A program made the translations under genes and the position numbers. A DNA stretch of 54,266 bases, counting the filler, from Catajapyx aquilonaris (lineage: Eukaryota): assembly GCA_000934665.2 (NCBI GenBank). It is 2 parts of 2 records of this genome, joined end to end, with 100 filler letters (N's around TTAATTAATTAA, not from the genome) between each part and the next. Parts side by side here need not be neighbours in the genome. Positions count along the whole stretch, not along the records: positions 27,162 to 54,266 come from KZ539289.1; 1 more part is not named here. One strand, written 5' to 3'. Position 1 is the first letter of the stretch, and each line of letters begins with the position of its first letter. Positions 27,176-52,654 of this stretch are shown one piece after another. Under the pieces are notes generated by a model. That model worked only from the letters and a program-made list of their open reading frames with translations. It had not been told where the DNA came from and searched no databases.

Positions 27176-28772
27176 ATTACTCAACAACAATTTGGAGAGT
27201 TGTGCGCACCCGTGATTTCCGAAACTCTGAAGCACGTGAGAAGTTTAATAGAAAAGGCCAGAATAGGAAAATGTCAAATAGAGCACGTGGTCATGGTCGG
27301 AGGTTCAACACGTATGCCAAAGCTGAAAGAAATTGTCAAAGATTTTTTGAACCTGAAAGAGCTGGACCAATGCATCGATCCAGAGGAAATAGTTGCTTAC
27401 GGAGCTGCTGTACAAGGTGCTATCCTGAACAAAGATATACGAAGGAAAATGACTCCCAGGAAAGGAAGCGCATCTTCTTTGCGGAGATTCAGATTTTGGT
27501 CGTCTTTCAGAAAGGAAGTCCCGGCAAGTACCAGTAAGAAAACACCTCTTGATGTAAAAAGTAATGTAGACGAAATCCTTATGCAGTTAGTGAAAAGTGA
27601 GAAACCAGACAGAGAAATTGAAGTTGAACAGAATCCAGACGACAAAGAGAAAATAACTGGTCAGACATCTGAAAAAACTGACACAAAGATTCCTGGGAAA
27701 GATGAGCCTGACGATGACAATATAAAAGGAGAAGAGATCATCGGGGAGACCCATGAAAAGAAAACGAAGCAAAGAATACCACCAGTTGTCCAGCCTGAAC
27801 AACTTACTACGCCAAAAGTCTCACATGAGTATCGCATGCAACCCCAATTGGATGATCATCCTATCATCTCCCTTGAAACAGAAAAGCCTAAACAAACTGT
27901 CATAAATGTGGCAGAAAATGACCAATCAGTACTAACTGCAAAGGTCAAAGACTCACAAGAGTACAGACTGCAAGGACTATGGGGTGAACATCCGATGGTC
28001 TCCGATGAAACAGAAAAACCTGATAAACCTCTCAAATATGACGAAAGATTCGACGAAACCAACCACGAAGAGCTTTTAATTAGTCACAAGCGGCAAGAAG
28101 AGTTAGTAGATAGTATAATTACGATCAGTGATCGGAAAGACATTGTCTGTTTACCTCTCCTTGTACATTATTACAAACGCTTGCTGACAATTACTGATAA
28201 TGCGGCTATACACTCTGAAAAAGGCATTGTATGCAATAACAACCAGGTGAAAATGACAATTCCTGTGAGTATTTTAAATATTATTATTCTCTCAGCTGAA
28301 ATGCAATTCGCAACGACAAATCTGCACAATTGTTCCCTTGTTGTTTATTTAATTCCAGATCGCTACAACGAAGGCTCTTCGTAATGTTGGAATAATTATC
28401 AGCATTGATGCTAACGGAATTGTAGGGGTAAATGCATCCGAAACAGTGTCAGGCAAACGTAACATCATGTGTCCCGACAACTCCGCAGATGATTTGAGGA
28501 AAGCAGAGTTGCCAGATATTATCCTCAATGAAACGCAGATATTCGGCGATAAGGAGGAAATGAAGAAGGAGAGAGACGCGGCCAAGACAATTGTGGAGAA
28601 TTATGTATACGAGCTGAAGCATGACCTGAAAGATTCACCCGAATATGATGAGAAGCAGAAGGCGATGGACAAGTGCTGCGAAACCAGCAAGAAAGATGAT
28701 GAGCTTTTAATTAGTCACAAGCGGCAAGACGTGACCACTTTCCAAGAAAATCCTCAAACGCCAGCCGTACAG
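27176..28772 (+). CDS. HSP70-like unit A (5'-truncated): end of NBD, large insertion at the linker, degenerate SBD; possibly spliced to unit B
   Basis: Exons 27176-28264 (IEHVVMVGGSTRMPK, IDPEEIVAYGAAVQG, then a long charged insert) and 28359-28772 (IISIDANGIVGVNASE, AKTIVENYVYELK); frame stays open to a stop at 28806-28808 if unspliced. Exons 1-2 are missing beyond the spacer. Confidence 0.8.
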
Positions 28773-28834
28773 GTGTTGAAATCCGAGGAGGTGTCTGCTA
28801 AATTGTAACACTTTCAATATCAACCATGTTTCAG

Positions 28835-31145
28835 GTACAGACACCAGAGGAGCCACAAATTATAAAACCCATCAGAGACACGAGAGGAACAGGCCCTGCA
28901 GTGGGCATTGACTTGGGCACCACATGTTCTTGTGTAGCCGCGTGGAAGGATGACGAGGTCACAATCTTCTTCAATGATCACGGAAATCGAGTGACACCAA
29001 GTTTCGTTTCCTTCACTGAACATGAGAGGCTGGTGGGAGATCCTGCCAAGCAACAGGTACAGTGTTGGTCATAAATGGTGGCATACTGCCAGCGACATTT
29101 TCCGAAGCGGCAGAAGAAGGAATCTTGCTCGCCCCGGTTTGTAGTATGCTTATTTTCGATTCTTTCTTCTGCCGCTTTGGAAAATGTCGCTAGCAATATA
29201 TTACCTCGATTTATGACCAACACTGTGTGTGACACGCATTGAAAGCAGCAAAATTCCTGAGCTCCCTTCAACTCACAGGTGGTGAACACGCCGGAAAACA
29301 CAGTGTACGACTCTAAGCGTCTGATTGGACGCAAATATGACGATCCTGTGGTGCAAGAGGACATGAAGTCATGGAGCTTTCCAGTCGTGAAGGACAACGG
29401 AAAACCTCGTCTGGAAGTGAAGTACCATAAACAGAGGAAGAGGTTTTACCCAGAGAGTTCAATGGTCCTGGCCAATTTGAAGGAGACAGCGGAGACTGCT
29501 CTGAAGACAAAGGTGACAGACGCAGTGGTGACAGTACCTGCTTACTTCAACGACGCCCAAAGACAAGCGACCAAAGACGCCGGAGAGATCGCTGGTCTGA
29601 ACGTCCTTCGAATAATCAACGAGCCGACAGCAGCAGCCATTGCTTACGGACTGCAAAACAGGTCGAAGAAAGACACCAATGTTCTGTTGTACGATCTCGG
29701 AGGAGGAACCTTCGACGTGACAGTGCTGACCATCAATGGTTTGACCTTTAAGGTCAGGGCGACATGTGGTGATACTCACCTGGGAGGGAGAGACTTTGAC
29801 AATCATTTGGTGGAATATTATGTGCAACTGTTTAAGAGGAAGCAAAAAGTGGACATCACAGGAAATTATAAGAGTATTCAACGACTTCAAACCGCATGTG
29901 AAACAGCCAAAAGGACACTTTCAGGCAGGATTGACACGTACGTGACTGTAGAGAACCTCAGCAACGGTATCAATTTAAACGAAAAGGTATAACATGTCAC
30001 TTTGGCCTCACTTGCGACAGAATTAATACAGTGTTTTACCTTGCAGTTGTCACGAAACAAATTCGACCATCTGTGCATGGAGCTTTTCCGAAAGACCATG
30101 GATATTGTAAAACAAGCTTTGTTTGATGCCAAAATTGATAAGAGCGACATTCATGACGTGGTTTTGGTCGGCGGTTCCACTCGCATACCACGGATAAAGG
30201 CAATGGTCAGAGAGTTCTTCAACGGCAAAGAGCTGTGCATGAACGTTAATCCAGAAGAAGCGGTAGCCATAGGAGCCGCCGTACACGCCGCCGTACTTCA
30301 TGGTGACCACAAAGGTCACCGCATAAATGAAGTGGTGCTGGAGGACGTCATTCCGATGTCGCTTGGCGTAGAGGTGGAGGGACATAAGATGGGCGTGATT
30401 TTGCAGAAGAACACCAAAGTTCCATGCAAAAAATCCAGAATATTTACTATTGAAGGCGATAACCAGGGTACATTTCCAATATGCGTGAGTAACATTGTGT
30501 AATATTATTGCTCTGTAATATTGTACTTATTCAATGCGTTTCATAATGATTTAAAAAAAACCAAACCTCAAAAAAATTCCTATGAGAGTAGTTAACCTGC
30601 TTGAATCACTACATAATTATTTTCTTCATTCCATTCAGGTGTATGAGGGAGAGAGTGATGAGGCGTTGAAAAACAACCTTCTGGATTCCTTCACCTTGAA
30701 AGGGTTTCCTCGTCAACCCTCACCCAAATTTGATGTGACCTTTGAGATAGACGCGAACGGAATTCTGAAGGTGACAGCGATCGAAACCACTTGCGGTCAA
30801 GGACAGAGTATAACCGTGACCAATGCCAGGGGACGATTCACTCAAGATGAACTGGAACAGATGAAGGAGGAAGAGGAGACACTCAGAGAAGCAGACAGGA
30901 GGATGAGGGAACAGGTGTTCGCCAGAAGTGAACTGGAGGATCATGTTGACAAAGTTAGGGAAAAGGCAGAAAAGATGGAAGGAGACGGCATTTATGTAGC
31001 GGGGAACAGAGAGGCGATCATCGACATATGCGACTTGGTCTCGCTCTGGATGGAGGACAATCCACATGCGGAAAGAGAACAACTGCAAGAGAAACTGGAA
31101 AAATTTCACAGAGAATGCTTGGAATTGGGCATGACATACGAGTAA
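28835..31145 (+). CDS. HSP70-like unit B (about 624 aa from the acceptor), no EEVD
   Basis: Exons 28835-29056, 29279-29986, 30047-30484, 30639-31145. [71 protein letters not shown]. An in-frame ATG at 28826 overlaps the acceptor and is an alternative start. Two-residue deletion in YPE--SSMVL. Confidence 0.9.
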
Positions 31146-32292
31146 TTTTTGTTTATTTTGGATGAATTAAAGATTTTCAAGATATTTGTGGTATACGGAC
31201 GGGCTGAATAAAATTGAAAGCTGGTATTATTTTAACTGACTCAAATTGCTTTTAGCTTACACTGTACCTAATCCCCTGCACCTTTTTACAGGATAAGACG
31301 GACATTTACGTAACAGTATTTATAGTGTAGGGGTAGCAGTCCATCTGAGGTTTAATTAGACTGATATCATTTTATCGCTCTGTGACTGACTATTTCAAAC
31401 AAGGATATAAGCTGATACGGTGCACCACGATTTCCGAGAAGGTGACCTGCTCTCGTTACGATTAGCAAGAAGACACTCGAGGATTTGACATATCAGAAGG
31501 CGTATTTTCTCAGAGATAACAAACTCTGACAATGATGGCTGAAGTGTTTGCGAACTCTATACTGTGATCTCATAATCATCCAAGATATTACTTTTAAAAA
31601 TAAGTCATCGTTGTGCAACTACTGACCATGGTTTGACGTCAGTATTCAAGCAAGTTACATCAATAACCCAGCCTTATTAAAATGCGCAGTAAACAATACA
31701 GTGGCTCATGTCTCATCAAATGGTGTCAACAATAATTTATCTCAAGCGTCATCTCCAGTAACATGTAATTAAATCCAGATGTGTGCTCCATGACCCGGCA
31801 CTTCGTATAAAATGGGATTTGGCACTGTACAGTGAATGATGAGTCGCAAACTGTGGTGTGTACATTCGCTTTAACAACACAAAGTAAGTAATCAGCAAGT
31901 AGGCATCAGTTTGGTAGGATTGAGAGACTCGACTAATCAGACATTCATTTTGTATCCGCGGCAGCTATAGTCCCACACGTTGAGATGTGAAGAATGGCAA
32001 GCTAAAACCTTATCTGATGACAGATTAGATATCCCTTCAGCACGGTCTATAGTTCCATTCAACCATTCCGTTACACCTCAGGAGGTAAGTACTTGGCTGT
32101 GAATCGAAATTGCCTTTAAACGTTCAAATACTGTATTGTTCGAAGTAGACATTTTATTTTGAAGGCTATTACGCTCTCTAGGCTTACAAACCAAAATCAC
32201 GAATTCGTATTTGCAATGCAGATCTGACATATTGTCACATTATTACTTTAACCAGAATATGAGCATAATGTCTTTCCCTAGGAAGATCAAAA

Positions 32293-34502
32293 ATGCCCGG
32301 GAAAGCTCCAGCTATCGGCATAGACTTGGGAACGACCTTTTCCTGCGTGGCTATCTGGCAGAATGGAAAGGTCCAAATCATACCGAACGACCAGGGGAAT
32401 ATGGTCACGCCTAGTTACGTTGCCTTCACAGACACAGAGAGGTTGATCGGAGACGCAGCCAAGGCGCAGGTGAGGTGCAGGTATTGTAAACTAGGAAAAT
32501 GCTACTTAGCATAATGACAACATTGTTCACCTTAGGTGTCAATCAACCCAGAAAACACTGTGTTTGACTCCAAACGCCTGATTGGCCGCACATACGACGA
32601 CCCCAGAGTACAATACGACATTGGCTTGTGGAATTTCCAAGTGGTAGACGACAACAACAAGCCACTGGTAGAGGTACGTAGTGAAGGAGTGAAGCGAAGG
32701 TTCCACCCTGAAGAGATAAGCGCCATAGTTTTGAGCAGTCTGAAGGAATCGGCCGAAAATTACCTGGGCATGAAGGTGACAGATGCAGTGGTGACGGTAC
32801 CTGCTTACTTCAACGACGCCCAGCGTCAGTGCACAAAAGACGCAGGGAAAATTGCGGGTCTGAATGTCCTTCGCATAATAAACGAACCGACAGCAGCAGC
32901 CTTGGCCTACGGATTGGACAAGAAGCTGAAGGAGGCCAACAACATCCTGGTGTACGATCTCGGAGGAGGAACATTCGACGTCTCGGTCCTGACCATCAAG
33001 GGCACTCACTTGAAGGTGCTGTCGACAGCAGGGAACACACATCTTGGTGGAGAAGACTTCGACAACTGTCTCTTGGACTACTTCGTGAACGATTTCAAAC
33101 TAAAGTACGGCAGGAACCTAACGGGTCTTCCGAAGTCTATGCGACGACTTCGCACTGCATGCGAGGAGGCTAAGAGGGCATTGTCCAGTCTAAAAGAAAC
33201 CACCGTAACAGTGGACAGCATATGCGGGACAATCGATTTCGTTTACAAGGTATGATAAGCAAGCATCGAAAATTTGAAAATATGTTGTAAATAGGTTTTA
33301 AATGCGAGAAAAATTTTTTACCTTAGTATGAGAGAGGTGGATTGGCTCATTTCGTCAATTTACGGCCTTGAAAAATTGTGTTGAAATTTATACAATGAGG
33401 CCTGTATTCCTATTGTTCATAAAACTGATTTTGCGAATAATTTCAGCTGAGGCGACCCATGTTTGAAGATCTGTGCATAGGCCTCTTCCGAAAAACGCTG
33501 CGTACAGTCGAAACAGCCTTGAATGATGCCAAGATGGACAAGAGTCAGATCGACGACGTGGTTCTGGTCGGAGGATCGACCCGGATTCCAATGATACGTC
33601 AGATGGTGACTGATTTCTTCGGAGGAAAAGAGCCTTGCAAGAGCATTCATCCGGACGAAGCTGTTGCATATGGGGCTGCAATTCAGGCCTCGATTATGAG
33701 CAGGCACGATGAGGAAGAAGAGGAAAAACCTTCTGTTGGCCAGGCTGGAGAACAAGACGAACAAGTGATGGACATTGTGCTGGAGGATGTGACTCCGATG
33801 TCACTGGGGCTAGAGGTTGCAGATGGGAACATGGAAGTGATTGTGGAGAAAAACATGGCCGTCCCTTGCCAAATGTCGAAAGGATTTACCACATCAGTGG
33901 ACAATCAGGATTCAGTCAGTTTCAGGGTAAGTCACCACGTATACAAATGTAATTATTTGTCTATTGTATTATGGACTCTTTACAAGGTGTTTGAGGGAGA
34001 TCACGCCAAGGTTGAGAGCAACAATCTTCTGGACTCGTTCAGTATAACTGACCTTCCTCCTGCACCAAGAGGCGTGCCTGACATCCAAGTAACTTTCAAC
34101 ATCGACGCCGATGGGATCCTGACTATCTCAGCTGTTGAAACCGCATCGGGAACGAGCAGCAACGTGACCATAAAGAACGACAGGGGTCATCTGAGCCAAT
34201 CGGAGATCGAGAGGATGATGAAGGACGCTGAGAAATACCAAGTGGACGAGGAGAAGAGGAAGGAAAGAAAAGAAGCGAGGGCCAAGCTGGAAGGTTTTGT
34301 CTTCCAGTTGAAGCAGGATGTCAGGAATGCGAGCGACAGTGAAATACTTGTGGCAGACAAGGTGGAGATGATGGAAAAGTGCGACCAGGTGCTGGAGTGG
34401 CTGGAGACAGACCAGTTGGAAGAGAAAGATGACTGCGAGTATCAAATGAAGAAGCTGCAGAAGGAATATCTGATGAAAAAATTAAATGCACTACAGGTGT
34501 AA
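32293..34502 (+). CDS. HSP70-like gene C (about 628 aa), intact ATPase motifs, no EEVD
   Basis: Exons 32293-32469, 32536-33249, 33447-33926, 33987-34502, all phase 0 GT-AG; all three HSP70 signatures plus IPPAPRG-like [23 protein letters not shown]; ends KKLNALQV. Confidence 0.93.
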
Positions 34503-35350
34503 TCAATACCCTTTTTTGTCACGCGAGGTGGATAAATTTATGTAAAATTTAATGTAACGCGAAACATCTTTATAAATTGAAGTACACATTATTTTGCACA
34601 AATCCTGGCGATTATCTGTAACTTACATAAATCTACCCGAATGTGACAGTCAAACATTTTATTACTTCTCCAGCACAGCCCTTGTAATTATTTCATATTA
34701 CACGTAAGGTTCCCAATAAATGAACCAATTTTGGAGAATGTCATCCTAGCACACACCTGACCATTTTAAACACATTATTGCATTTTAATACGACTCATTT
34801 CGAACTACAAGTGAGAGTTTATCTATAAACTTAAATAATTATGTCCCAAAACCTTTAAACAAGCAGAATTCAATTAAAATAAGAAAATATAATTTAATGA
34901 ATATTGACCTGCATGTAGGCACACTTCAACTCTGCATTCCGTAGTGTAATGCAGGCATTTCTTCTTCTCCAATACGATACAAGAAAATCAACCACCTCGT
35001 TGGGCGTAAGTTAGGTCAACATTAAAAACATGCAAAGCATATGATTAGACAATATTTTAGAATATCCGTAAAACAATAGCTGGAGCATGTCTAGTTAATC
35101 AATCGGCGAATAAACAGCTCTAGATATGGGTGTTGCTTTTATAAACAAATAACAAAATTATTATTGTTGACAATTATAATATTATCGCTACTAGGAGTTC
35201 ACTAACATGCAAATATCATTCAAGTAAAAAAATACCATGTAATTATTTAGAGGAAATGTACAATATACGAGTGGTCAGGGACTATAGACACAACTGGGCC
35301 ACATCTGAACCAAGTCCTTTATCAGCATTTCATTTGCTAATAGATCAGTA

Positions 35351-37204
35351 TTATACGAGCGTGTAATGAAAAGTGGGACCATGCTTCACAGAGTCAGCTC
35401 GTATGGCAGCTCCGATGGCAACTGCTTCATCCGGATTTACGTTCTTGCAGAGCTGTTTTCCATCGAAAAATTCCTCGACCATGGCCTGTATCCTTGGTAT
35501 GCGGGTGGAACCACCAACCAGAACAACGTCTTGGATGTCCTTCTTGTCTATTTTCGCATCAGAAAGAACTTGCTTGACAATCTCCAAGGTTTTTCCAAAC
35601 AGTTGTTGGCAATGATCCTCGAATCTGTGTCTCGACATCTGGAATAAAATGATGAATTATTTTGTAAAATGGGAGGAATATATTGCGGTAATTATGTGAC
35701 TTAAATTCTTTGAAACACACGTAGTATTTGAAATCGAATCCATCGCAAATGTTATCTATTACGACATTTGCTCTTAAAACGTTGTACAAAGCTTCCTTGG
35801 CCTCCTCCCAGGCGATTCGCAGCCTTTGCATGGCTCTGTGGTTCCCTGTGATGTCTTTCTTGCGATTCCGCTTCAAAATATCGACTAAGTAATCCACGAT
35901 GATGTTGTCAAAGTCTCTCCCTCCCAAGTGGGTGTCGCCACATGTCGCCCTGACCTTGAAGGTCTTATTTTTGATGGTTATAACTGTGACGTCGAAGGTT
36001 TCATCCCTGAGGTCGTAAACAAGCACATTTCTCTCTTCCTTCGACATGTTTTCCAATCCGTAAGCAATCGCGGCTGCAATTGGTTCATCGAGGATCTCAA
36101 GGACGTTCAGACCAGCCATTTCTGCTGCGTCCCTCGTCGCCTGTCTTTGGGCTTCGTTGAAATAAGCAGGGACCGTCACCACTGCGTCGGTCACCTTTGT
36201 CCCCAAAGAAGACTCGGCTGTTGAAGTTTTCAAGTGCTCTAAAATCATAGAACTAATCTGCTCAGGATAAAACCGCTTCTTCTCTCCATGATACTGGACT
36301 TCAACGAGAGGTTTACCAGCGACATTCACAACAGAGAAACTCCATGACTGCAGATGTCTTTGAACTTCTGGATCATCGTAATTGCGACCAATGAGACGAT
36401 TCATATCGTAAACTGTGTTTTCAGGATTTAACACCATCTGTAAGGAGGGGGGGGGGGACATGACTGTCAGATACAACACCGATTAGAGCAGGAGTAAACT
36501 AATATAGAAAATGGGATTTCTACTAATGATACATTATCCTTGGTACTTAAGTTGTGGTTAGCTATATATGGAACAGTCAGAAGTTTTTATTTAGTATTTA
36601 CGTCAGTAACTTCATTTTATACACGGAGATTGTCGGTCACTGGGAATTCTTCATGTGAAAAAATCTTTCAACATACGTAGGCCTATACCAGTACCTGTTT
36701 CGAATAAGATAATGTGCAAATTGTCAAACTAATCTTCTCGTTTTAAGCAGTTAATTCCTTTTCTTACTTCAAGGCTATAATAAAATATCATATAGCCTTT
36801 AATATCAGGTTGGAAGATCCTTGTTTTAGGGCCTAAATTGCCATGACTGAAGGAAACTTTGCACAACTCATTTGGACCTCAGGTCAAATGGTTTAAAAAG
36901 ACTTTAAACCAATGCATAGGCCCTATACTAGACCCTCCCTATTGAATTAATGAGAACTGTAGAACAAAATAATGTAAAGGACGAAAATGTAAAAAAATAC
37001 TGGTACTCCTTGTTTGGCGCCATTTCCTATCCACCTGTATGTTCCATCAAACTCGACATAACATGGAGTCAATCTATTGCCATGTTCGTTAAATAATACA
37101 TGGGCTTCTCCATCCTTCCACACAGCTACGCAGGAGGACGTGGTGCCCAAATCGATGCCCACTGCTACCCCTGACCCAGCTCTGTTCCACGTATGTCTTC
37201 GTAC
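35351..37204 (-). CDS. HSP70-like unit D: nucleotide-binding domain only, degenerate catalytic motifs, no own ATG (probably fused to upstream ankyrin exon; may be a pseudogene)
   Basis: Exons 37204-~37007, 36437-35721, 35638-35351. [23 protein letters not shown] and [10 protein letters not shown] retained, but [17 protein letters not shown] and [10 protein letters not shown]; stop shortly after AVAIGAAI, with no SBD exon found downstream. Confidence 0.8.
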
Positions 37205-37305
37205 CTGAATCAGAGAAATTAACGATTATTAAATTACATGGTTGGGAACGACTTGTACACTGGAATCATTAATCATTTCTTCCGTTTCTGTCTTCTGTGT
37301 TCAAT

Positions 37306-37812
37306 TTAATCGTTAATTTTCTGCAAGAAATAATACTTCACTGTTTCAGCGTCATCATTTCCAGAAATAGCACGGTTCAGGGATGTGTCGGGCTCTTCAT
37401 TTCGCTTTGTGACATCTCCATCACTTCCATTCACAAGCAGCTTGACGGTCTCCAGGTGACCATTGGCCGAAGAGTAGTGAAGAGGAGTGTTGCCCTCTCG
37501 GTCAACAGTGTTCACTTCGGCGCCACGCTCCATGAGACGCTGACATATCTGGACATGACCGCCTTCGGATGCAAAGGACAGTGCTGTGCGAAGGTGTGAG
37601 TCTCGAGCGTTGACGTCTGCCGAGTGCTTCAGCAGCACCTCTACGGCACTCAGATGGCCACCTTTGGCTGCCAGTATTAGCAGCGTGGCACCCAATTCGT
37701 TACTGGACTCTACATTTGCGCCGAATTCCAGGAAAATTTCCAAAATGTTGGGGTGTCCTTTTTCTGCAGCTAATATTTGGCTTGAGAGTGGTACATCTAT
37801 TTCTTCCTGCAT
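37306..37812 (-). CDS. Ankyrin-repeat exon (about 4 repeats plus a degenerate fifth)
   Basis: LAAEKGHPNILEIFLEFGANVE / GATLLILAAKGGHLSAVEVLLKHSADVN / LRTALSFASEGGHVQICQRLMERGAEVN / GNTPLHYSSANGHLETVKLLV at 33-aa spacing; acceptor upstream at 37835-37836; candidate in-frame donor after 37342 to unit D. Confidence 0.88.
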   Translation of the reverse strand: MQEEIDVPLSSQILAAEKGHPNILEIFLEFGANVESSNELGATLLILAAKGGHLSAVEVLLKHSADVNARDSHLRTALSFASEGGHVQICQRLMERGAEVNTVDREGNTPLHYSSANGHLETVKLLVNGSDGDVTKRNEEPDTSLNRAISGNDDAETVKYYFLQKIND

Positions 37813-37914
37813 GATGGACAGGCACGGGAGAAACCTGCGTAGTGCAAATAAATCGCAGTCTCAAACTGGAAGCTGTTTCTAATATCAGATGGAAAAGTAA
37901 CGGTCAGTTAATTA

Positions 37915-38098
37915 CCTTATTTGACGACATAATAAGACGCACGGGCGTATATTAAAGATGCATACCCATTTCAGCAGATCATATTCAGGAAAAAAATGTT
38001 CTTAGTGTATTTTCGTGTATAAGACGCAGCGCAATTTTTGAGCCTTTTTNNNNNNNNNNGGGGGGGGGGGAGTGCGACTTATATGTCGTCAAATAAGG
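37915..38098. mobile_element. TA-flanked pogo/Tc1-like MITE spanning a 10-N gap (38050-38059)
   Basis: TA|ccttatttgacgacataataagacgcac vs gtgcgacttatatgtcgtcaaataagg|TA, an inverted pair with TA flanks at 37913-37914 and 38099-38100. Confidence 0.75.
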
Positions 38099-38869
38099 TA
38101 AATACTCGGCATGTATTATTTTATCCGAGTATGTTGGCTGAATAGTGAAAACTTGTGCTTGAATGTTGAGAATGCGCATTTTTAACAATATTTTTCATAA
38201 CTGCCTGATCAGAGCCCTGCCAATTTTTACCACTATAATGACACGTTAGAGGGGCCCTTAGCGCTTAGGCTACAATATTATTTTATTTCACAATGAACTT
38301 ATAATAATGCTCCTGACATATCTAAAATGTAACTTCTATTAAACAGGACTTACGAGTGATGAACACAGTGGCCAACTATGAAGGTGAGACGTAAATTCTG
38401 AAGGTCTTGATCTTATCACCAGGTAGCCAAGGTGTTTGTGATAACTTGGGTTACATCATTATGATTAGTCCCAGGGATAATTACATCGATTTATTTTTCC
38501 AATGCACACGATTTGTAATTAAATAAAAATATGAAAATTGACGCACTGATGCACATGTAAACTCATAAAAAGTCATGGGATTTTCAGACTTTATTCATTG
38601 TCACCTCTTAACGACGAATAATTAGACGAGTATAATTAAATATATTTGAGAATTTCTGCAAAACATACGATGCTAAAGCATGTCAAACCCACCTAAACTT
38701 TTAACACAAGATATTATATAAAATCTAGAGCCGGAATGTAGAGGATCGGATTTATCATTTCAGATATGGAATGGCTGTATCCAATATCCCGTCTGTAAGA
38801 TAATTGCCCAGGGTAATTTCATTAATGTTGTGTGAGTTTAAGTTGTTGCATGTATCCCAATAACTTGCA

Positions 38870-41800: not shown

Positions 41801-42185
41801 ATTCACCGATACCTGGGCTTTACCTACAGTCAATGACACTCGAAATGGCCAGTAAAATCTCCTTGTCGGTAGGAGTGTGCCGTCTTCAGCTCGTCCGATC
41901 AGACGCTTTACATCAAACACTGTGTTCTTCCGGTTCCGGCCCAACTGTAAATAGTTCATAACCGGTTAGATACCTGAAAATGTCATAACAATAATTTTTT
42001 ACTTGATTTTTGGCGGGTTCTCCGACGAGTATTTCCGTGTCGGTGAATGAGACGTAACTGGGAATAAACGCCCTTTTTGTACTGTGGTCAGGAATGATTT
42101 GAATTTGTCCATTTTTCCATACTGCGATTCTGGCCTCGGACGTGCCCAGGTCGATCCCAACAACAGGCGTACTTTCATAAGCCAT
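38870..42185 (-). CDS. HSP70-like gene E (about 1019 aa): divergent NBD, very large acidic/Ser-rich insertion, degenerate SBD
   Basis: Exons 42185-42003, 41944-41228, 41104-39404, 39328-38870, phase 0 GT-AG, no stops or frameshifts. [67 protein letters not shown]. Confidence 0.88.
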
Positions 42186-42671
42186 TTTTGTCACATCTTC
42201 AGAGAAAACCTTTTTTTATACTACACATCGGACACCTGCAAACATATTTAAAATCAGTTGACGATTGGTCATCTCCGTACTTACTCCGTACCTGCTTCAC
42301 ACCTTGCCTAAAAGCAAATTCCAAGCCTGATTGTTCGTTCTTGTATAGTATAGCATGACACTAGCCTACTGCTAATCACGGTATTTATGTTTGACATGGA
42401 CCACTTATCTGTAACTTGCAATGGCCGCCCATTGTGATAATCACAATCAGCTCAGCACTAATACCACACTCTAATCTACTGATATCATTTTAACACATTC
42501 ATGAGGGCGTTACAATATTTGCTATTAATATCAGGCACAGAATGTGCGAATTCTCTTAAACTGTAGTATAAAAATATTTTCAACGTGTAAGTTACTAAAA
42601 TATAACCCATATGTGTGGAAAAAATACGAGATATTAGTGCGTGACGGTCATTGTTTATTGCCATTGGGACG

Positions 42672-44915
42672 TTACATTCGTACAGAGCTCAGTTGCAAAC
42701 CCAGGTACTCTTGCTCCAGCTTCTTCTTCTGATGCTCGAACTCTTCCTTCTCCGCGTTATGGTTTGAATCCAGCCATTCCAGCACCTCGTAGCATCTTTC
42801 GGTCAGGATCTTCATCTTGGGCACGTTCGACACTTTCTTCTTCAAGTCGTACACGTAGTGTTCCAGATTGATCCTGGCTGTGGCCTGGTCCTTCTTTTTC
42901 TGGTCCAGCTTGCGGAATTTCTCAGCTTCCTGGACCATCCTGTCGATTTCTGCCTCGCTTAGACGGCCCTTCTCGTTCTTGATGGTCACGTTGCGGCTGT
43001 TACCCGTGAAGGCGTCCACCGCTTTGACCTTGAGGATTCCGTTGACATCGACGTCGAAAGTGACCCGGAGTTCAGGTCCGCCTCTGGGTGCAGGAGGAAT
43101 GTCAGTCAGAGTGAACGAATCCAGAAGGTTGTTGCCCTCGGTCATGGCCCTCTCACCCTCGTATATCTTGAAAAAATACATTACACATTACCCACATTAC
43201 CTTCTAATAGTAGGATAAATGAGTGCTTCCGTTTTTGTCCTGTACTGTCAGGACTTACTTGGAAATGGACGTCCTCTTGGTTGTCGTGGCAGGTTGTAAA
43301 CACTTGTGTTTCCTTGCACGGAACGCCTGTGTTCCTCTCCACGATCACGGCCATAATTCCTCCTTCGATCTCGACTCCAAGAGACAACGGTGTCACGTCT
43401 TCCAGCACCACTTCTTTTATGTAGTCACCTGGATCCGAATCTGTCGACCGGTCGCCTTGCTTTCGACTTATGGCCGCTGCCTGAATGGCTGCCCCAAAGG
43501 CCACCGCTTCATCCGGATGTATGCTCTTGCAAGGTTCTTTTCCGTCGAAAAAATCAGTCACCAGCTGACGTATCATTGGAATCCGGGTCGATCCTCCGAC
43601 CAGAACTACGTCGTCGATTTGACTCTTGTCCAGCTTGGAGTCCTTCAAGGCCGATTCGACAGTTTTTAGAGTCTTACGGAACAAGTCCATGCACAGGTCT
43701 TCGAATCGGGCTCGTCTTATCTGCGTTGCAAAAATTATTTCACAGTTACCTTCTTGGACAATCATTATGTAAAAGTGGGAGATGATTCCTTCAATGAGAG
43801 ATGGGTACTCACCTTCTGGACAAAGTTTATATCTCCACAAATGCGGTCCACTGCCACTGTTGCTTCGTTCGCAAGGGACAGTGTCCTTTTAGCCTCCTCG
43901 CAGGCGGTACGGAGACGTCGAAGGGGCTTCGGAAGAGCTCTGAGATCCTTTCCGTGCAGCACCTTGAACTCTTTGACAAAGTAGTCCAAGAGACAGTTGT
44001 CAAAGTCCTCTCCGCCAAGATGGGTGTTTCCAGCTGTCGACAGCACCTTTAAGTGAGTGCCCTTGATGGTCAGCACCGAGACGTCAAATGTTCCTCCTCC
44101 GAGGTCATACACAAGGATGTTGTTGGCCTCCTTCAGCTTCTTGTCCAATCCGTAGGCCAAGGCTGCTGCTGTCGGTTCGTTTATTATGCGAAGGACGTTC
44201 AGACCAGCTATTTTCCCTGCGTCTTTTGTGGACTGTCGTTGGGCGTCGTTGAAGTAAGCAGGTACCGTCACAACTGCGTCGGTCACCTTCATGCCCAGGA
44301 AATTTTCGGCCGATTCCTTCAGACTGCCCAAAATCATGGCGCTTATCTCTTCAGGGTGGTACTTCCATGTCCTCCCTTCATGCTCGACCTTTATTAGAGG
44401 CTTGTTCTTCTCGCTGACCACATTGAAGTTCCAGAGGTTGATGTCGTATTGAACTACAGGGTCGTCGTATGTACGGCCAATGAGCCGCTTTGCATCGAAA
44501 ATTGTGTTTTCTGGATTTACTGCCACCTTAAACGAATTCATTCTATAAGGTTATGATGCAGGTAAATCGACATCATATTTCTATCCAGTTTCAACGTGTC
44601 ACTGATTTATCTACATTTTTATAGACAATTTACTTTCAATAACAAGTTGCAGAAACACACGCAATCAAGCATTACCCTGCCATTCACATTTCCGCACTTG
44701 AATATTAACGTAATAATTATTTGTTTACTTATTCTCACCTGTGCCTTGGCTGCGTCGCCGATAAGCCTCTCTGTGTCTGTGAATGCGACATAACTCGGTG
44801 TGATCAGATTTCCCTGATCGTTTGGGATGATCTCGACTTTATTGTTCTGCCAGACAGCCACACACGAATGAGTCGTGCCTAAGTCTATGCCGATTGCCGG
44901 AGCTCTCCTGGACAT
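42672..44915 (-). CDS. HSP70-like gene F (about 615 aa), closest paralogue of C, no EEVD
   Basis: Exons 44915-44739, 44526-43813, 43720-43259, 43166-42672; all HSP70 signatures intact; [23 protein letters not shown]; ends LQLSSVRM. Confidence 0.93.
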
Positions 44916-45988
44916 TTTCGCCTGAAAATCAACGTCACAGAATGAGCCTATTAAGACGCATGTCCTGTAATAGTGATTTACTGTAGCTCCACGTACCTAA
45001 TAATTTCGATGCCCTGCGAACTATGCAGAAGTTGGAGAAGCGCTGGACGGGAAAGAATTGTACAGTTCTCCTAAGAGAATATTAAAAGTATTTTTTCATC
45101 CCGATAAGCTCACCTCGGGATCCTTAGTTTTCTCAAATCTGCAGTGAGGTGGAACGATAAGATGCGAGCTGAAATGATAAGCTGTAAGGCTAATCGCAGA
45201 CGTCTGATTGGTGCACTCTTATGTAAATTCGTTCTCTGATTGGTCAGAAAATGTAGTCAGTCATCCGGATATTCCGCAAAGTTTAGTGCACATTAAATTA
45301 TCAAAATGCATAATAAATATGGTTCATTGAAGCAGTCTACAATTATTCACATTTTTGGGAAGTAACTTCTTTATGTATAACCTCGGCTATACCCTCTGCT
45401 TTTTCCGATAGCACTACTCTGCAATATATTTTTAAAATAAAAACTTTATGTGAACGTAGGATAGAATGATAAATAAAGCTGACCCAGTCATAACATAATG
45501 ATGGTAACAATCAGTAGGACGTACTATCGCTATGGCACTGTAACAGACACATTAATTTTCTCAGTGATAACAAATGCATTAATAACTATCTCCTAAAACT
45601 ATAAGCTGCGGTTTTTGATTGATCACTACTAGAATGTCAATCATATTCTTTGACATTTCCTTGTCTCCGGATTATAGTTCTTCGAAGTGAACGCAAACTC
45701 CACCTGTCACAGGACAAGGAGAGGATGAGGCCCAAACGGGACCTATGGGTCATAGGTCCGTGATAAATATTAAGCGCAGTGGACTTAATCAACAAGTAAT
45801 GGCAATTGGCCCCATTTAACACATTACACACATCCCTGACCTTGCTTTTCAACACATTATGACATATGCTTCAAATCCCCCTTCCTTTCCCCTGATTGCA
45901 TCCAACACACCAATCAAATAAACCTCTTCACAATCAATGAATCAATCCGTACACTTCGCTCATTTTAAAATGTTTGCAACAATGGACT

Positions 45989-46180
45989 CCAAAATAAAGA
46001 ACACTCGATGATGCAATAATGGGGGAGGATAGGTCATACAAACTCACTAAAATTAACACTTCAAAGTGCGTTCAACATTTCCCCAAAATAAAGAATACCT
46101 GATGATGTAACCATGGGACGAATAGGACATGCCACTCACTGAACCTCACACTTGACGTGCGTTCAACCTGACCCCCCAAA
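45989..46180. repeat. Degenerate tandem repeat, about 94-bp unit x2
   Basis: ccaaaataaagaa...gatgatg...atggg...atagg.cat...actcact.aa....acactt...gtgcgttcaac recurs from 45989 and 46083. Confidence 0.7.
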
Positions 46181-47602
46181 TCCCTCAACAATGAACCCTG
46201 AACCCCGGTTCAACAGTACTGTACCATCAGCAACAGGGACTCCCAAAACCAATATAACACTGAATACTTAAATGCCAGTATCAGCAGCTCCTCCGGACAC
46301 CCACACATCGTGAAGCTCAAAAAAGGTATGAGTCCAAAACAAACAAAAAAAAAGGGGGGGGGGGGCTGTTCAGGCAAGGTCAGCTAACTCGGTCGGAGGG
46401 AAGGCAATGGCCCCATTTCCCCAACGTCACATTCAACTGTGACACCACCTCTCTTTAGCATGTGTAATATTATGAAGTTAATTCTTGTAGGTGACCCCAG
46501 CTTTTTCTGCAGTTATAAAGACCCATATTTTTATCATGCGGATATCATAATAAACGATCGTTCGGCCATCATTTCATGCCTGACTATTATATCGAGGTTC
46601 AAACGTAGGTTCAAACTAATACGTAAGTTCTTCTGATATTGAGACCTGCAGTTTTTTTTGACACTCAGATTAAGAGAGTAGGCGTCTTTGTGTCAGATAA
46701 TTCTCGTTTCCTGCAGTTTCCGTAAAGTCTTCGGTTAAAAAATAACAACATAATGAATCAACTTCAAGCCCAATGTGTAACTTATCACCTGATAGAAGCA
46801 GTGTACTTTATCAAGTGCCCTACCGGCCGGCCTTCGGACAGGAATATCGGTGATGCCCTCTGCGTAATATTACCCTCATTATCTACTGCAATACCAAGAA
46901 TTGTTGCGTAAATGTATACCTGCTATCAACGTGCCATTTGTGTTTCTTTACGCAAAAATACAGCATGATAAGTAAATGATATAGCATGATCCTTCATCAT
47001 TTCTAGGAAAAGAAGAGAGGTTTAATTTCTCATGTTGTACAGGTCTCTTTGGGCCTAACAAGACTAGTTTGAAAATGAGGGTGAGAAAAATAATAAAAAG
47101 AAACATTATTCGATAATAATCGATGTTAATATCATTGCATGTTAAAATATAGGCCTGACACAAAGCGGGGAAAATTACAGTCGAAATGATTATGATTTAC
47201 TCTGGTTGGTGCAATTGCCCCAAAAATCACGCCACAAGTTCTTTATGCCATTGTTTTTACGGTGCATTCTCCAAGTTCCGAGTAGTGTTTAGAAATACTG
47301 CAGTAATCTAAACTAACTGTGCATGAGGTTTTTACTGTCATAACATTAAAAAAAAATATTAATGCACATGCAAATTACAGATTTGGGTAGAAAGCAATGT
47401 TGCTAAAAAATTTTAATGTTCTACATCTTTATTCTTGCACAATTATTTTCTGACAATGCGTCTCCTACTACCCCAATGAAATTATACTGTAAGATGATTG
47501 TTATGAAGAGCTAGTTAATATTAGCTGATTATTTCCAGACAACGCAACCGGCTGTTACACAAATCAAGCAAAATGGCATTATTTTACACAATTTTGATGT
47601 TC

Positions 47603-49731
47603 CTACGTATCGCTACCATGAACATTCGACCATTCATTTCTAAGTTCGTTCAGTTTCTCCTCGAACTCTTCTTTGCTCGACATTAGGTTTTCTTCGATCC
47701 AGTCCAGGACAGAACTGCACATTTTCTTCAGATTTGACTTCTGCTCATCTGAAATGACTTTGCCACCAGTTTTACTGTCCAGCTTCTTCCTGACCGATAA
47801 GGCGTATTTTTCCAATTCATTTTTGGCCTTAAGTGTAACTTGTCTCTTCCCGTCTTCTTCCCTTTGCCTGTCCTCTTCCCTCTTCATCTGGTCAAGCTCA
47901 TCCTGGCTGAATCGTGCTCTTGAATTAGTTATGGTTATGCTTTGTCCATGGCCATGCACGGTTTCGACTGTGTTGACACTCAGAATTCCATCCTCGTCCA
48001 CTTCAAATGTGACCCGAAACCTTAGTCTTCCAGCTTGTTTCAAAGGAAAGTCTGTCAAGGTAAATGAATCCAGAAGGTTGTTTTCGTCAGTGTCTTCATT
48101 CTCGCCTTCATACACCTGCAGAAAGTATAGCAACTCATGTCGTGTAGCTGTTACTGTATGGTGATAAAGACTTTGAAAATGGAAGATGTACTCACGCTTA
48201 TTGGGATTGACTCTTGGTTATCTTTAACAGTCGTGTACATTTTGGACATCTTGCACGGGACGGTGGTATTTTTTGGCAAAATAACGCTCATTTTATGTCC
48301 CTCCACCTGCAACCCAAGTGACATTGGTATTACGTCCTCCAGCACCATCTCGTTTATTCGATGACCTTCGTGGTCTTTGTGAAGAGCAGCGGCATGTACC
48401 GCAGCACCATTGGCCACCGCTTCTTCCGGATGGACATTCTGACACAGCTCCTTGTTGTCGAAGAACTCTCTGACCATCTCCTTCACCCTTGGGATGCGAG
48501 TACAGCCGCCAACCAAAACCACGTCTTCGATGTCATCCTTGCTCAGTTTGGCGTCTGTCAGAGCCTGCTGCACAATGTCCAAAGTCTTTTTGAAAAGGTC
48601 ATCGCAAAGGTCGTTGAACCTGTGCCTTGATATCTGGAAATGCCAAAGACACATATAATTAGGATAATTAATTCTGGTGAAAAGCCTACCTTGTAATTTA
48701 GATGGATTTCTTCGCAAATGTTGTCTACAACGACAGGTGCTTCCAGGCTGGAAGAAAGAGTTTGCTTGGCCTTCTCGCAGGCCACTCTCAGTCGCTGCAT
48801 GGCCTTGTGATTGCCCGTGATGTCCTTCTCGTGCTTTTCCTTCAACTTATCGACATAGAAGTCCACCATTAGGTTGTCCAAGTCTCTCCCTCCCAAGTGG
48901 GTGTCGCCGCAGGTCGACTTAACCTTGAAGGTCAATCCTTTGATGACGAGAACCGTGACGTCGAAGGTTCCTCCACCAAAGTCGTACACCAGAACTGTAC
49001 GCTCTTCCGTCGCATTGTTTTCCAATCCATAAGCAATGGCTGCTGCTGTCGGTTCGTTGATTATTCGTAGTATGTTCAGACCAAGCGATTTTCCCTGCGT
49101 CTTTAGTCGCTTGTCTTTGGGCGTCGTTGAAGTAGGCAGGTACCGTCACCACTGCGTCGGTCACCTTCATCCGCAGATCTTTCTCTGCCGCTGCTTTCAA
49201 ATTGGATAGCACCATTGAACTTATCTGCTCAGGTTTAAACCGCCTTTTCTTTCCCTGATGCTGGACCTCAATTTGTGGCTTATTGTTGTCTCTCACTACG
49301 CCGAAGCACCAGGATCTCATGTCCCTTTGAACTTCAGGATCATCATAAGTGCGGCCAATCAGGCGCTTGGAGTCGAACACAGTAGTTTCTGGTGTCATAA
49401 CCATCTGAAATTGTTAAATGTACATCTCAAACAATAAAAATGCCGTCTTACAAATGATTTGTTATGCATGTGCAATGGCGTAAAAATTATTATCAGGTTA
49501 CATGCAAACTTGTCGCAAATGTTGGACAACATATCTAGATACTCATAGCCTCACCTGCTCTTTGGCGGCGTCCCCTATAATCCTCTCTTGCTCGGTGAAG
49601 GAGACGTAACTTGGCGTCACTCGAGATCCATTTGAATTGAAAAATATCTTGACACCATTATCCTTCCACACAGCAATGCATGAACATGTTGTGCCCAAAT
49701 CTATTCCCACAGCTGGTCCTCTCTCTGACAT
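47603..49731 (-). pseudogene. HSP70-like gene G with a single +1 frameshift (recent pseudogene or sequencing error); closest paralogue of B
   Basis: Exons 49731-49555, 49404-48690 (715 nt vs 714 in C and F), 48633-48196, 48115-47603. Extra T at 49083/49084 turns ATC GCT GGT CTG (IAGL) into ATC GCT TGG TCT; the rest is intact. Confidence 0.8.
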
Positions 49732-50733
49732 CTTGTTGCTCACACTGCACCCGATATATCCTTTTTAAAGTTGCTTATTCTGAAAAGCTGCTCGAGCTGC
49801 TCTGAGCGATGAAAAAAACAACGAAAGGTGTGTGGTCATCTAACGCTCTCATGTAGTCTTAACTTTTATGGAGAGGATAACTTATCATGCAGCACGTGAT
49901 AATTCAGGGTCGCCACTGACGACTTTCATACAATCATTAGTGATTACAAATCTTATATGCAGGCTTGTTGAAAATGGCAGTTTACGTAGAAAAATATTAT
50001 GCAAGCCGCATCAAATAGTAATTGAGTAAAAATTCTTACGCTGGTTTTTTATTTTTACATCAATCGATTAGATCTATTAGATCATTACTTAGAATCTGTT
50101 GCAAAATCAAACTCGCCCACACTACTTGCCGCACTATTACGGAGTAGCCTACCTAGGTACGTGTGCAATATTTATAACGTATTAACGTGCATAATGTGCT
50201 TACATCGTGTGTACTGTCAAACAAATATTCAATTCAAGATTATTCTGTGGTATTATCATTTATTGCACAATAATGTAGATGTCACAAGTGCTTGCAAGAT
50301 CTTGTTCATATGACACTGTAACAAATGCATATCCTTACATCGAAAATGAAAAGTTGTTCATAAACTATTATTATTACCTCAAGGAAAATTTATATTTCAG
50401 AAAATTTTATTATTAATCTCTCTAACTTTACCTAGATTAATATTGTTGGGATCATGATGTCATAGGCTTACCCTTTTGTCAGAGAATGTAGATAAATGAA
50501 CATCACTCTAATAAACATGTAACATCATTCTACCAGTACGGTATAGTAGAGTCAACTATTTCTGGTCGGGTATCCTTAATAATTTTGAATTCGTCACACA
50601 CATACCAGTTAATGAATCATTATAGCCGAATTGAATTTTTTATAATTACGCCACTCTGCATATTTTTATATCAACAAAGTGCAGTAAACTGTACCCAAAC
50701 TTGCTGTCAACTAGCATTATTGGTTATAATTTA

Positions 50734-52654
50734 TTAAACACTCGTCATTTTCGTAGTGGATTTTTCCGAGCTGTCAGCAATGTATCTTCCGAGCTTTATA
50801 TCGGAGATCGTCTTCTTCTGACCGAACACTGACACAACCACTGTGGCAGTGAGAATTCCCTCTGAATTGTTGTCAATATATATTTCAAATTCAGGTTCAC
50901 CCGGTGGTGGATCATGTTCACTTGATCGTAAATCCACGATGACTTTGTCATCAGATCCCTGCAAAAATAAACCAAGATGTAAACGTGAAGTATAAAACGG
51001 CAAATATTATGATATTATGCATGAAGTTTTTAACACAATTGCGGTGTAGCCACGTTTCTGCTTACCTGTTTGGGGCACAGTTCTGTGGGAAACGGAATAT
51101 TCGAATCTCTGTTCAGCTCAATGACGATGTTGCCTTCCGTGATCTCGACACGCAGCGTCATCGGCACTATGTCCTCGACCATCAGGCCATTGATCCGGGA
51201 ATGATTTTCTCCGTTGATGACAGCAGCTTGCAAAGCAGCACCACACACTGCTGCTTCCTCTGGATGGACGCTTCTGCATATCCTTTGCCCAAATCCTCGC
51301 ACAGCGTGACGAATTTTTGGAATGTAGGTTGACCCACCCACCATTAGCACATCATCAATTCCGTCTTTGTCAAGCTCGGCCTTTCCTAGGGCATCCTCAA
51401 CTTTATTCGTGGTCATTCGAACGAATTCATCACAAATGTCCTCAAACTGAGCCAGTGTTACCTTAAATGAATTATTGTCGATTTAAAAATAATCTCCAAG
51501 CCAGTTGTCAACAGTATACTTTGTAACGAATATACTTTGAGCAGTATTTTATAGAAAGCTTTACCTTCTCAGTGAAATCGTTTCCATTCAAGATTCCGTC
51601 CACTTCCACCTGAGCCTCTTTAATCAAGGACAGAGTCTTTTTGGCCTTCTCGCAGGCGTTTCGAAACCTCATGAATGACTTGGTGTCATTTATCTCCAAC
51701 CTATTGGCATTCAATATGTGGTCGACCAAAAGAACATCCAGGTCCATCCCTCCCTTGCAAGGGTCTCCGGCTGTAGACAACACCTGGAGGTTCAATCCCA
51801 CTATTTTGACCACCGACACATCAAGTGATCCTCCTCCGAGGCTGTACACCAGGATGTTGCTCTTCTTCTGAGGTCTGTTTTCCACTGCGTAGGCAATGGC
51901 GGCTGCAGTTGGCTCGTTTATGAGGCGGATAGTTGTAAATCCGGCGACATCTGCTGCGTCTATTGTCGACTGTCGCTGGGCGTCGTTGAAAGAGGCAGGC
52001 ACCGTCACCACTGCACCAGTCACGTGTTCGTCAAGAAACTGCTCAGCAGTTTCCTTCATCTTCTCCAAGATCATGGCAGTGATTGCTATTGTGTGAAACT
52101 CCTTCACTTGTTGGTCGTAATTTACTCTGACACCTGTGTTATTGTCCCGCTTTTCAGCCAACTGGAATGGCCAGAATCGCAGGAATTTGTTGTTGTCCTC
52201 GTCCTCGACATACTGTAATTTCTGTCCGATCAGCCGTTTGAAATCGAACACGGTGTTCTTCGGGTTCAGAAATTCCTGCAAATTAATTGCGCAATGCATA
52301 ATATGTTAAATGTACGAGTCCTGCACAAAATGCGTCGTGATTTAAAGCCGAGAATGCACATTTCCCTCATTATACTGATTACAATGCAGTGTGAATGGCT
52401 CACATGTTTGCATCACTGTGCTTGACATCAACAAGGAGTCCAACGACATTCGTATATAAACCAATATTTCTCACCTGCTGTTTGGCAGAGTCTCCGAGGA
52501 GTCTCTCGGTGTCTGTGAATGCGGCATAATTCGGGGTGGCCTTGTTTCCGTGGTCATTTGCAAGAATCTTGACCTGACCCTCGTGCCAGACTGCCACTCG
52601 AGAGTAGGTGGTGCCCAGGTCGATTCCAATCGTCTTTCCGGCCATCTCTGACAT
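50734..52654 (-). CDS. HSP70-like gene H (about 503 aa): NBD + degenerate SBD-beta, no helical lid
   Basis: Exons 52654-52475, 52275-51565, 51461-51066, 50958-50734. [37 protein letters not shown], but [10 protein letters not shown] and VGGSTYIP; last exon only 74 aa ([24 protein letters not shown]). Confidence 0.85.

Follow-up and report, generated by a model that had tools for sequence, protein, structure and literature searches.

Is a cluster of eight HSP70-like genes, none of which ends in the C-terminal EEVD motif, an ordinary heat-shock cluster, a field of decaying copies or a gene family in its own right? The cluster lies in a stretch of 54,266 nucleotides, here called the window, from the Catajapyx aquilonaris assembly GCA_000934665.2. 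Our answer, which we hold to be probable together with the mechanism proposed below, is that the array belongs to an old tandem family of cytosolic HSP70 genes that is private to its lineage, derives from the arthropod inducible-type (HSPA1-like) HSP70s and lacks EEVD. The window is a composite. A spacer at 27062-27161 (44 N, TTAATTAATTAA and 44 N), with stops in all six frames, joins two contigs; this is an artificial contig-join spacer and the pieces on either side are separate, so that readings across the join, whether of gene linkage or of "truncated" genes, are unsafe. The piece that holds the HSP70 array lies to the right of the spacer and runs from 27162 to the end of the window (KZ539289.1).

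HSP70-like segments were located by tblastn with vole HSC70 (P0153) as the query. They were confined to 27176-52639 of the whole window and made up eight units, here lettered A to H, with segment identities to HSC70 of 26-75%. Units A, B and C are on the plus strand, and D, E, F, G and H on the minus strand. Exon borders were set by scoring each GT/GC-AG pair near the segment ends against HSC70, and the remaining borders were placed by eye. The resulting frames were open in all eight exon models, with TAA or TAG as the stop, G being open only if an extra T at 49083 is skipped. The models contain 21 internal junctions, every one of them GT-AG and in phase 0. Three homologous positions account for the whole set: one follows AKxQ (AKQG in D), one precedes [ILMV][TSR][RLQ]..F and one precedes [VI][YF]EG[ED] or an equivalent motif. 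In each complete unit the coding sequence is interrupted by three introns; intron lengths in the array range from 56 to 569 nt, many of them being ~60 nt. A first-pass annotation of this DNA had described eight HSP70 units in ~25 kb with shared phase-0 intron positions, and both descriptions were confirmed, tblastn finding no further unit elsewhere in the window.

The EEVD motif is the ligand of TPR-clamp proteins. Neither EEVD nor KDEL stands at the C-terminus of any of the eight units; for comparison, 192 of the first 240 HSP70s retrieved end in EEVD. The Gly/Pro-rich tail is missing as well, each of the eight units stopping right behind lid helix E or before it. Only 8-13 residues (26 in B) separate the start codon from GIDLG, which leaves no space for a signal or transit peptide. 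The lack of EEVD, KDEL and signal peptide reported at first pass was thus found again in all eight exon models. The linker between the domains is altered too. In B, C, F, G and H it departs from the canonical hydrophobic D-[LV]-L-L-L-D, with Glu replacing the last Leu, and reads VLEDV in the first four and MVEDI in H. Among 509 retrieved HSP70s, Glu was found at this position in none of 357 linkers, and the motif NNLLDSF in none of 235 NNLL motifs. Both had been put forward as private signatures common to the array; they are indeed absent from the retrieved HSP70s, but VLEDV and NNLLDSF occur only in B, C, F and G, four of the eight units.

The relationships of the units were examined in a tree of 40 rows, made up of 32 proteins (of 240 retrieved) hand-chosen to cover a spread of taxa, a BiP-like outgroup (C-terminal 665 residues) and seven units, A being omitted as lacking a nucleotide-binding domain (NBD). 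The seven units formed one clade (Shimodaira-Hasegawa-like approximate likelihood ratio test, SH-aLRT, 99) within the inducible-type HSP70s of insects and chelicerates (93), separate from the cognate group. When the long-branched E and H were taken out, the remaining five units formed one clade (100) in the same place. In phmmer searches of the PDB with the NBD exons of F, E and H the best matches were HSC70 or HSP70-1, with H also matching yeast Ssb1 and unnamed "Hsp70" chains; BiP, mitochondrial Hsp70, HSPA12-14 and Hsp110 were not named in the top 60 PDB chains listed for each of these three exons. Among proteins within the length limits of the searches, which took in the longer ones, the best database identity was 66% for the NBD exon (exon 2) of F, 55% for its last exon (exon 4) and 41% for the NBD exon (exon 2) of E. 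When the last exons of B, C, F and G were combined in a profile and searched against 1.84 billion representatives, the best identity among the 149 sequences examined was 58%, and none of these sequences contained NNLLDSF. The single clade, and best identities of 66% for an NBD exon and 55-58% for a last exon, uphold the earlier suggestion of a separate, private subfamily.

As the units nest in the inducible-type group, the cluster could be taken for an ordinary stress-inducible hsp70 cluster that has been misread. However, the units have three coding introns each and a 5' untranslated region (5'UTR) intron was also observed, the copies are 22-69% identical rather than near-identical, and EEVD is found in none of them. 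Moreover, a scan for perfect three-unit heat-shock elements gave 0 in 54 kb, where ~0.7 would be expected by chance, imperfect elements lying outside the scan. An ordinary heat-shock cluster is therefore hardly credible here, and the array differs from the stress-inducible insect clusters in just the way that the first-pass annotation had proposed.

By alignment the units fall into four types: I (C and F, 68.5% identical), II (B, G and D, ~61%), III (A and E) and IV (H). The full layout of NBD, linker, substrate-binding domain (SBD) and lid is present in B, C, F and G, whose C-termini come just after the last lid helix, where HSC70 runs into its Gly/Pro-rich tail (B ends in ...GMTYE). Unit B (28826-31145, plus strand; 627 aa) has exons at 28826-29056, 29279-29986, 30047-30484 and 30639-31142. 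In unit C (32280-34502, plus strand; 628 aa) exon 1 runs from an acceptor at 32280, with the ATG at 32293, to 32469, and is followed by exons at 32536-33249, 33447-33926 and 33987-34499. Its partner F (42672-44920, minus strand; 615 aa) has exons at 44915-44739, 44526-43813, 43720-43259 and 43166-42675. Unit G (47603-49731, minus strand; 613 aa with the extra T skipped) is complete apart from its frameshift, which lies in exon 2, where the extra T at 49083 gives GCTTGG in place of the GCTGG of F.

The remaining units depart further from the HSC70 layout. In those of type III the NBD is degenerate, and a charged insert of low hydrophobicity separates it from the linker; the beta-sandwich that follows is vestigial, and the lid comes last. 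The insert spans 428 residues in E (acidic and Ser-rich) and 258 in A (charged). Unit E (38870-42185, minus strand; 1019 aa) has exons at 42185-42003, 41944-41228, 41104-39404 and 39328-38873. Unit A (27176-28808, plus strand; 512 aa, partial) has exons at 27176-28264 and 28359-28805, a TAA stop, and is cut by the contig start: it begins at an acceptor 14 nt into the second contig and retains NBD subdomain IIA/IIB, a vestigial SBD and the lid, covering positions 293-378 and 465-582 of the Pfam HSP70 model. Given this start at the very edge of the contig, the missing N-terminal half is a truncation by the contig end and not an architecture. Unit D (35351-37204, minus strand; exons 37204-37007, 36437-35721 and 35638-35354) consists of an NBD only, with 400 open codons, and its exon 1 has no ATG. 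Unit H (50734-52654, minus strand; 503 aa; exons 52654-52475, 52275-51565, 51461-51066 and 50958-50737, the exon 3 donor being ambiguous between 51066, 51054 and 51051) ends just past the beta-sandwich, which is itself shortened, and the helical lid is missing. Most of the architectures recognized at first pass therefore stand, namely the near-canonical C and F, the giant insert of E, the lidless H, whose model stops just after the beta-sandwich, and the single-base frameshift of G. For A, which had been described as a giant-insert architecture, the 258-residue insert holds but the missing N-terminal half is a contig-end artefact.

Within the inserts of A and E, Tyr-centred islands of the form [HQC][EQ]Y[RH][LMF] occur twice each. 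Those of A (27815-28040) are SHEYRM and SQEYRL, inside a diverged 94-nt direct repeat, and those of E are HQYRL and CQYHF (protein residues 648 and 763); otherwise the insert of E cannot be aligned with that of A. Unit A also contains a 32-nt direct repeat, 97% identical, at 28067-28098 and 28698-28729, which encodes ELLISHKRQ. One copy is at the end of the insert, before the linker and SBD, and the other in the tail of A, before the NBD of B; the repeat may have arisen by micro-duplication, or it may be the scar of a recombination where domains meet.

Residues K71, E175, D199 and D206 are required for ATP hydrolysis by HSP70. Across 31 listed NBD sites (ATPase, adenosine pocket and J-contact), F and C are canonical everywhere except at Y15, and F is the most canonical copy of all. 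B deviates at the Y15 site and by E231R and D366E, whilst G has four deviations (E231R, R272Q, S340C and D366E). The ATPase site (D10, K71, E175, D199, GGGT201-204 and D206) is intact in B, C, F and G, as are the J-contact residues R171, N174 and T177. Judged by their residues, the ATPase sites of D, E and H are degraded, through K71N, R171E and GGG201-203RDE in D, through E175N, GGGT to GTYA and D206E in E, and through D199S, T204S and R342Y in H. PDB entries 1qqm and 1qqn, the D199S and D206S mutants, were both among the PDB matches of the NBD exons.

Evidence from RNA came from one public run, X1, of unrecorded type and kept as assembled contigs, for the stretch 28200-48199. X1 holds 0.35 of the sampled words, and G beyond exon 4 and the whole of H lie outside this stretch. 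Spliced X1 contigs matched 5 of the 21 predicted introns, with GT..AG ends: introns 1-3 of C, intron 2 of D and intron 3 of F. As these contigs skip exactly the five predicted introns, run X1 contains spliced copies of C, D and F. The possibility that none of the units is transcribed, which would have undermined the first-pass interpretation, is thus ruled out for these three. The contigs also place the start of C exon 1 at an acceptor 13 nt 5' of its ATG, and show an acceptor 6 nt before the ATG of F, with 5'UTR exons at about 44996-45042 and 45114-45138. No joint for A, B or E is among the X1 joints listed for 28200-48199, and X1 has no cover in the bins 31535-32201, 38205-38871, 40873-42206, 45542-46208 and 46876-47542; neither carries weight for or against expression.

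Several further details of the X1 contigs were observed. Upstream of F (region 44920-46272) there are at least two short 5'UTR introns, of 75 and 71 nt, and a third joint that skips 1133 nt, which is doubtful, its ends being CT..AA and its shorter side 23 nt. Within intron 1 of D (569 nt) a 344-nt contig matches perfectly at 36539-36882, with a depth of 7.4 against 3.2 for the contig that joins D to an ankyrin exon (see below). It could be a retained intron, the product of an internal promoter (D exon 2 starts with Met) or another transcript. Intron 1 of B holds an inverted repeat (29083-29199) with 42-nt arms, 90% complementary and spaced by 33 nt, where contig depth is 47-103 compared with ~1 on the B exons and several contigs have loose ends at 29057-29124; this is probably a short repeat, similar to a miniature inverted-repeat transposable element (MITE), that is present in many transcripts.

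Pairwise ratios of nonsynonymous to synonymous substitution (dN/dS) were calculated by the NG86 method; dS was computable in 19 of the 28 pairs and saturated in the other 9. Identity among the paralogues was 22-69% and dS at least 0.84, whilst dN/dS was 0.10-0.41 in the computable pairs, in every case below 1. The closest pair, C and F, had a dS of 0.84 and a dN/dS of 0.25, and B and G had values of 1.31 and 0.22. For D the ratio was 0.19 against B and 0.24 against G. By domain, where computable, dN/dS was 0.16-0.23 for the NBD, 0.16-0.47 for the lid and 0.16-0.62 for the SBD-beta (0.16-0.34 among B, C, F and G). The units are old duplicates that have been kept by purifying selection, and this holds for D and for the frameshifted G as well. 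Since G is under purifying selection in these pairwise comparisons, its frameshift is either recent or an assembly error.

These values bear on the reading of the array as a decaying field of pseudogenes left by an old HSP70 amplification. Decay of this kind would account for the frameshift of G, for the loss of catalytic residues in D, E and H, and for D having no start codon and being out of frame in its observed transcript. Yet seven of the eight frames are fully open (400-1019 codons) and G is broken by one base, dN/dS has stayed at 0.10-0.41 over a dS of at least 0.84, the splice sites are intact at 21 of 21 junctions, and there are correctly spliced transcripts of C, D and F. We therefore regard a pseudogene field as very improbable. 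The first-pass description of birth and death with dead members is plausible as far as the frameshift of G and the three degraded ATPase sites go, but D, E and H are not decaying, as their frames are open and their dN/dS resembles that of intact copies. What the sequences and contigs together suggest is a private, expressed and old HSP70 subfamily, predicted to stand outside the EEVD-dependent co-chaperone network.

The order and the uneven divergence of the units also suggest how the array was shaped. Two tracts of C and F (C residues 121-240 and 331-360; 32653-33012 and about 33480-33570 in C) are 92-94% identical in nucleotides and 77-87% at third positions, against mostly 43-63% third-position identity in other windows of the pair. 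These tracts amid diverged sequence make gene conversion likely between the two paralogues, which are inverted and lie ~10 kb apart. Read 5' to 3', the types follow one another as III-II-I on the plus strand (A, B, C) and as IV-II-I-III-II on the minus strand (H, G, F, E, D), so that II-I recurs in B-C and G-F, and III-II in A-B and E-D. This recurring order suggests that the array grew by multi-gene block duplication, with one block inverted.

An ankyrin-repeat exon (37834-37337, minus strand; Ank_4 in Pfam, 1.8e-32) lies upstream of D, with its own ATG at 37812, 22 nt behind its acceptor at 37834. One X1 contig joins it to exon 1 of D at 37204. With the donor used there, at 37337 (AA|GTATTA), the ankyrin reading frame meets a stop 12 codons into D and the NBD is thrown out of frame. 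A donor that would keep the frame lies 5 nt further upstream in the DNA (exon end 37342, ACA|GTGAAG), but its use was not seen in X1. D had been described at first pass as an NBD-only unit linked to ankyrin repeats; it is NBD-only and the ankyrin exon is spliced to it in RNA, but the one contig that shows this joins the two out of frame.

A comparable question arises for A and B. The stop of A is 17 nt before the ATG of B (28826), and the conserved pre-start acceptor follows this ATG by 9 nt. Contigs cover that acceptor in three units, C, D and F, and all three use it. If B is spliced at this acceptor, it needs an upstream coding exon. A candidate in-frame mini-intron of 62 nt, CAG|GTGTTG ... 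TTTCAG|, would span 28773-28834 on the plus strand between A and B, and a second phase-0 GT, GAC|GTGACC, lies in the tail of A, ~40 nt upstream of the 28773 donor. AATAAA or ATTAAA is absent from 28809-30008, the 1200 nt after the stop of A, whereas in the other seven units such a hexamer is found 13-453 nt after the stop. These facts point to a shared transcript, each of them weakly when taken alone, and a genuine A-B fusion, the tandem double of the first-pass annotation, strikes us as a possible but doubtful outcome.

From here it could be argued that the neighbouring type III and type II genes are single transcription units, with A spliced onto B in a two-headed protein and D made as an ankyrin-NBD protein through the in-frame donor. 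Much of the above is in keeping with this: the 17-nt gap, the position of the B ATG, the two phase-0 donors and a 62-nt intron that fits the verified size class of 56-66 nt, the missing poly(A) hexamer, the splicing of a D exon 1 without ATG to the ankyrin exon, and the III-II order found twice in the array. However, an RNA joint across A-B was not seen in the X1 contigs, a phase-0 GT in a 100-nt tail is close to chance expectation, a stretch of 1200 nt without a hexamer has a chance of ~0.25 by a rough estimate, and the only ankyrin-D contig uses the out-of-frame donor. We consider such joint transcription units unlikely. A wider form of the proposal is a modular toolkit in which a dead, insert-bearing type III unit is paired, by splicing or functionally, with a live HSP70 or a bare NBD of type II, A-B being two-headed and D ankyrin-targeted; this we think no less unlikely. 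If it were true, a dead head with a long acidic insert carrying Tyr islands would regulate or target the live head, and this would be an Hsp70 architecture not described before.

The ankyrin exon also figures in the first-pass idea that the array serves immunity or gut defence as a set of sensors or decoys, with active, dead and domain-fused HSP70s acting as baits or guards. The likeness is a general one, to a tandem family that evolves fast and includes degenerate copies, besides the single ankyrin exon. In the odd exons, however, Pfam scans gave only HSP70 and Ank, with no signalling, death-fold, NACHT, TIR or LRR domain; there is no signal peptide; and the computable pairwise dN/dS values are all below 1. 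A role of this kind is in our view quite improbable.

We thus return to an old, private family of cytosolic HSP70s as the probable explanation, and several points weigh against it. The RNA evidence is one run in the form of contigs, with no listed joint for A, B, E, G or H, and ATPase competence is predicted from residues alone. The absence of heat-shock elements applies to perfect trimers, and with dS saturated in nine of the 28 pairs the ratios are rough. When placed singly in the tree, H falls between the cognate and inducible groups without support and E has no supported place; the membership of these two in the clade rests on intron positions (compared within the array) and location as much as on sequence. 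Finally, the 50%-identity representative library may hide relatives inside clusters of canonical HSP70s, and the searches with the 90% library covered the longer proteins.

The rest of the window contributes context. The left piece holds a gene for a RagA/Gtr1-family GTPase (RagC-like; 628-1986, minus strand), a gene for a glutaminase with C-terminal ankyrin repeats by Pfam (16720-20133, plus strand), an open reading frame (ORF) that has no Pfam match but encodes a hydrophobic segment and a long acidic tail (25835-26425, plus strand), and a GC-rich block of overlapping Pro/Ala-rich ORFs (11300-12230). Because of the spacer, the RagC and glutaminase genes have no demonstrated linkage to the HSP70 array. 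Further runs of N lie at 15594-15637 (44 N, without the spacer motif) and at 38050-38059 (10 N).

Among known systems, canonical HSP70/HSC70 (HSPA1A and HSPA8; PDB 1hpm, 3hsc and 1yuw) provides the best matches of the NBD exons of F, E and H, and B, C, F and G share with it the full layout and the canonical catalytic and J-contact residues. Unlike it, the units here have no Gly/Pro tail or EEVD and a VLED linker in place of LLLD, the ATPase is degenerate in D, E and H, A and E have giant inserts, D is an NBD only and H is lidless. Private expansions of cytosolic HSP70s without the C-terminal motif are already known from tapeworms, from Parochlus and from plants. In Echinococcus and Taenia tapeworms, hsp70-like genes derived from cytosolic hsp70 are clustered, many-copy and often subtelomeric, have lost the canonical C-terminal motif in every copy, and are expressed, most copies lacking a signal peptide; the function of the family is unknown (Tsai et al., 2013, as described in PMC4413821). 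The present array resembles them as a lineage-specific cluster of expressed, EEVD-less copies of cytosolic type. It differs in belonging to another phylum and having an independent origin, the flatworm matches being no closer than any HSC70 (51-54%, last exon), and the available text on the tapeworm family describes a subtelomeric position and does not report members with a dead NBD and giant insert, NBD-only members or ankyrin-linked members (PMC4413821).

A closer parallel among arthropods is offered by the Antarctic midge Parochlus steinenii, for which nine species-specific Hsc70 genes are described, mainly dispersed and 51-55% similar to their orthologues. They have lost both the G/P-rich region and EEVD, are supported by RNA, and have a raised dN/dS (0.116 vs 0.03) that stays below 1 (PMC9617917). 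Both are arthropod species-specific clades without EEVD or G/P region and with an SBD more diverged than the NBD. The midge genes are called mainly dispersed, whereas the units here form a dense tandem and inverted array; their NBD is described as conserved, whereas here the ATPase sites are wrecked and the architectures altered in three or four members. No Parochlus Hsc70 protein was found among the database matches above 66% identity. Truncated cytosolic Hsp70T variants of plants are defined by loss of the C-terminal co-chaperone motif (PMC10687569), a likeness to the present units that comes with an unrelated plant origin. The array fits lineage-private EEVD-less expansions as a kind, and common descent with the tapeworm or Parochlus families is not implied. 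Apparently new are the dense array and its conserved non-canonical members, namely the dead NBD with a giant insert, the NBD-only unit behind an ankyrin exon, the lidless unit and the linker change from Leu to Glu. In the literature searched, no description of an arthropod tandem array with such mixed architectures was found.

The kept residues, sandwich and lid would make ATP-driven chaperones of B, C and F, and also of G should its frameshift not be real. Without EEVD they would offer no grip to TPR-clamp partners such as HOP and CHIP or to the EEVD-dependent class B J-proteins, and would fold or hold their clients outside the routes of HSP90 hand-over and CHIP degradation. D and E (and A), together with H, have kept their fold under purifying selection and lost residues for hydrolysis; by analogy they would most likely be non-hydrolysing binders or regulators. 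Ssz1/HSPA14 and Hsp110 combine the Hsp70 fold with an ATPase that is impaired or put to another use, and they work with a canonical Hsp70 as its partners or regulators. They may serve as a working analogy for D, E/A and H, but the best PDB matches here are HSC70 and HSP70-1 and not these families. Expression of the cluster would be constitutive or tissue-specific rather than heat-induced.

EEVD is the handle by which HSP70 is connected to HOP/HSP90, to CHIP and to class B J-proteins. To judge from its residues, the family has kept the ATPase, the J-contacts and the substrate pocket, lost the handle and altered the allosteric linker. It may therefore be a natural experiment on what HSP70 does outside the co-chaperone network. 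The conserved dead members, with giant insert, NBD only or no lid, are candidate new Hsp70-based regulators. For arthropod genomics, architectures read near contig joints may be artefacts, and HSP70 copy number can be dominated by private families.

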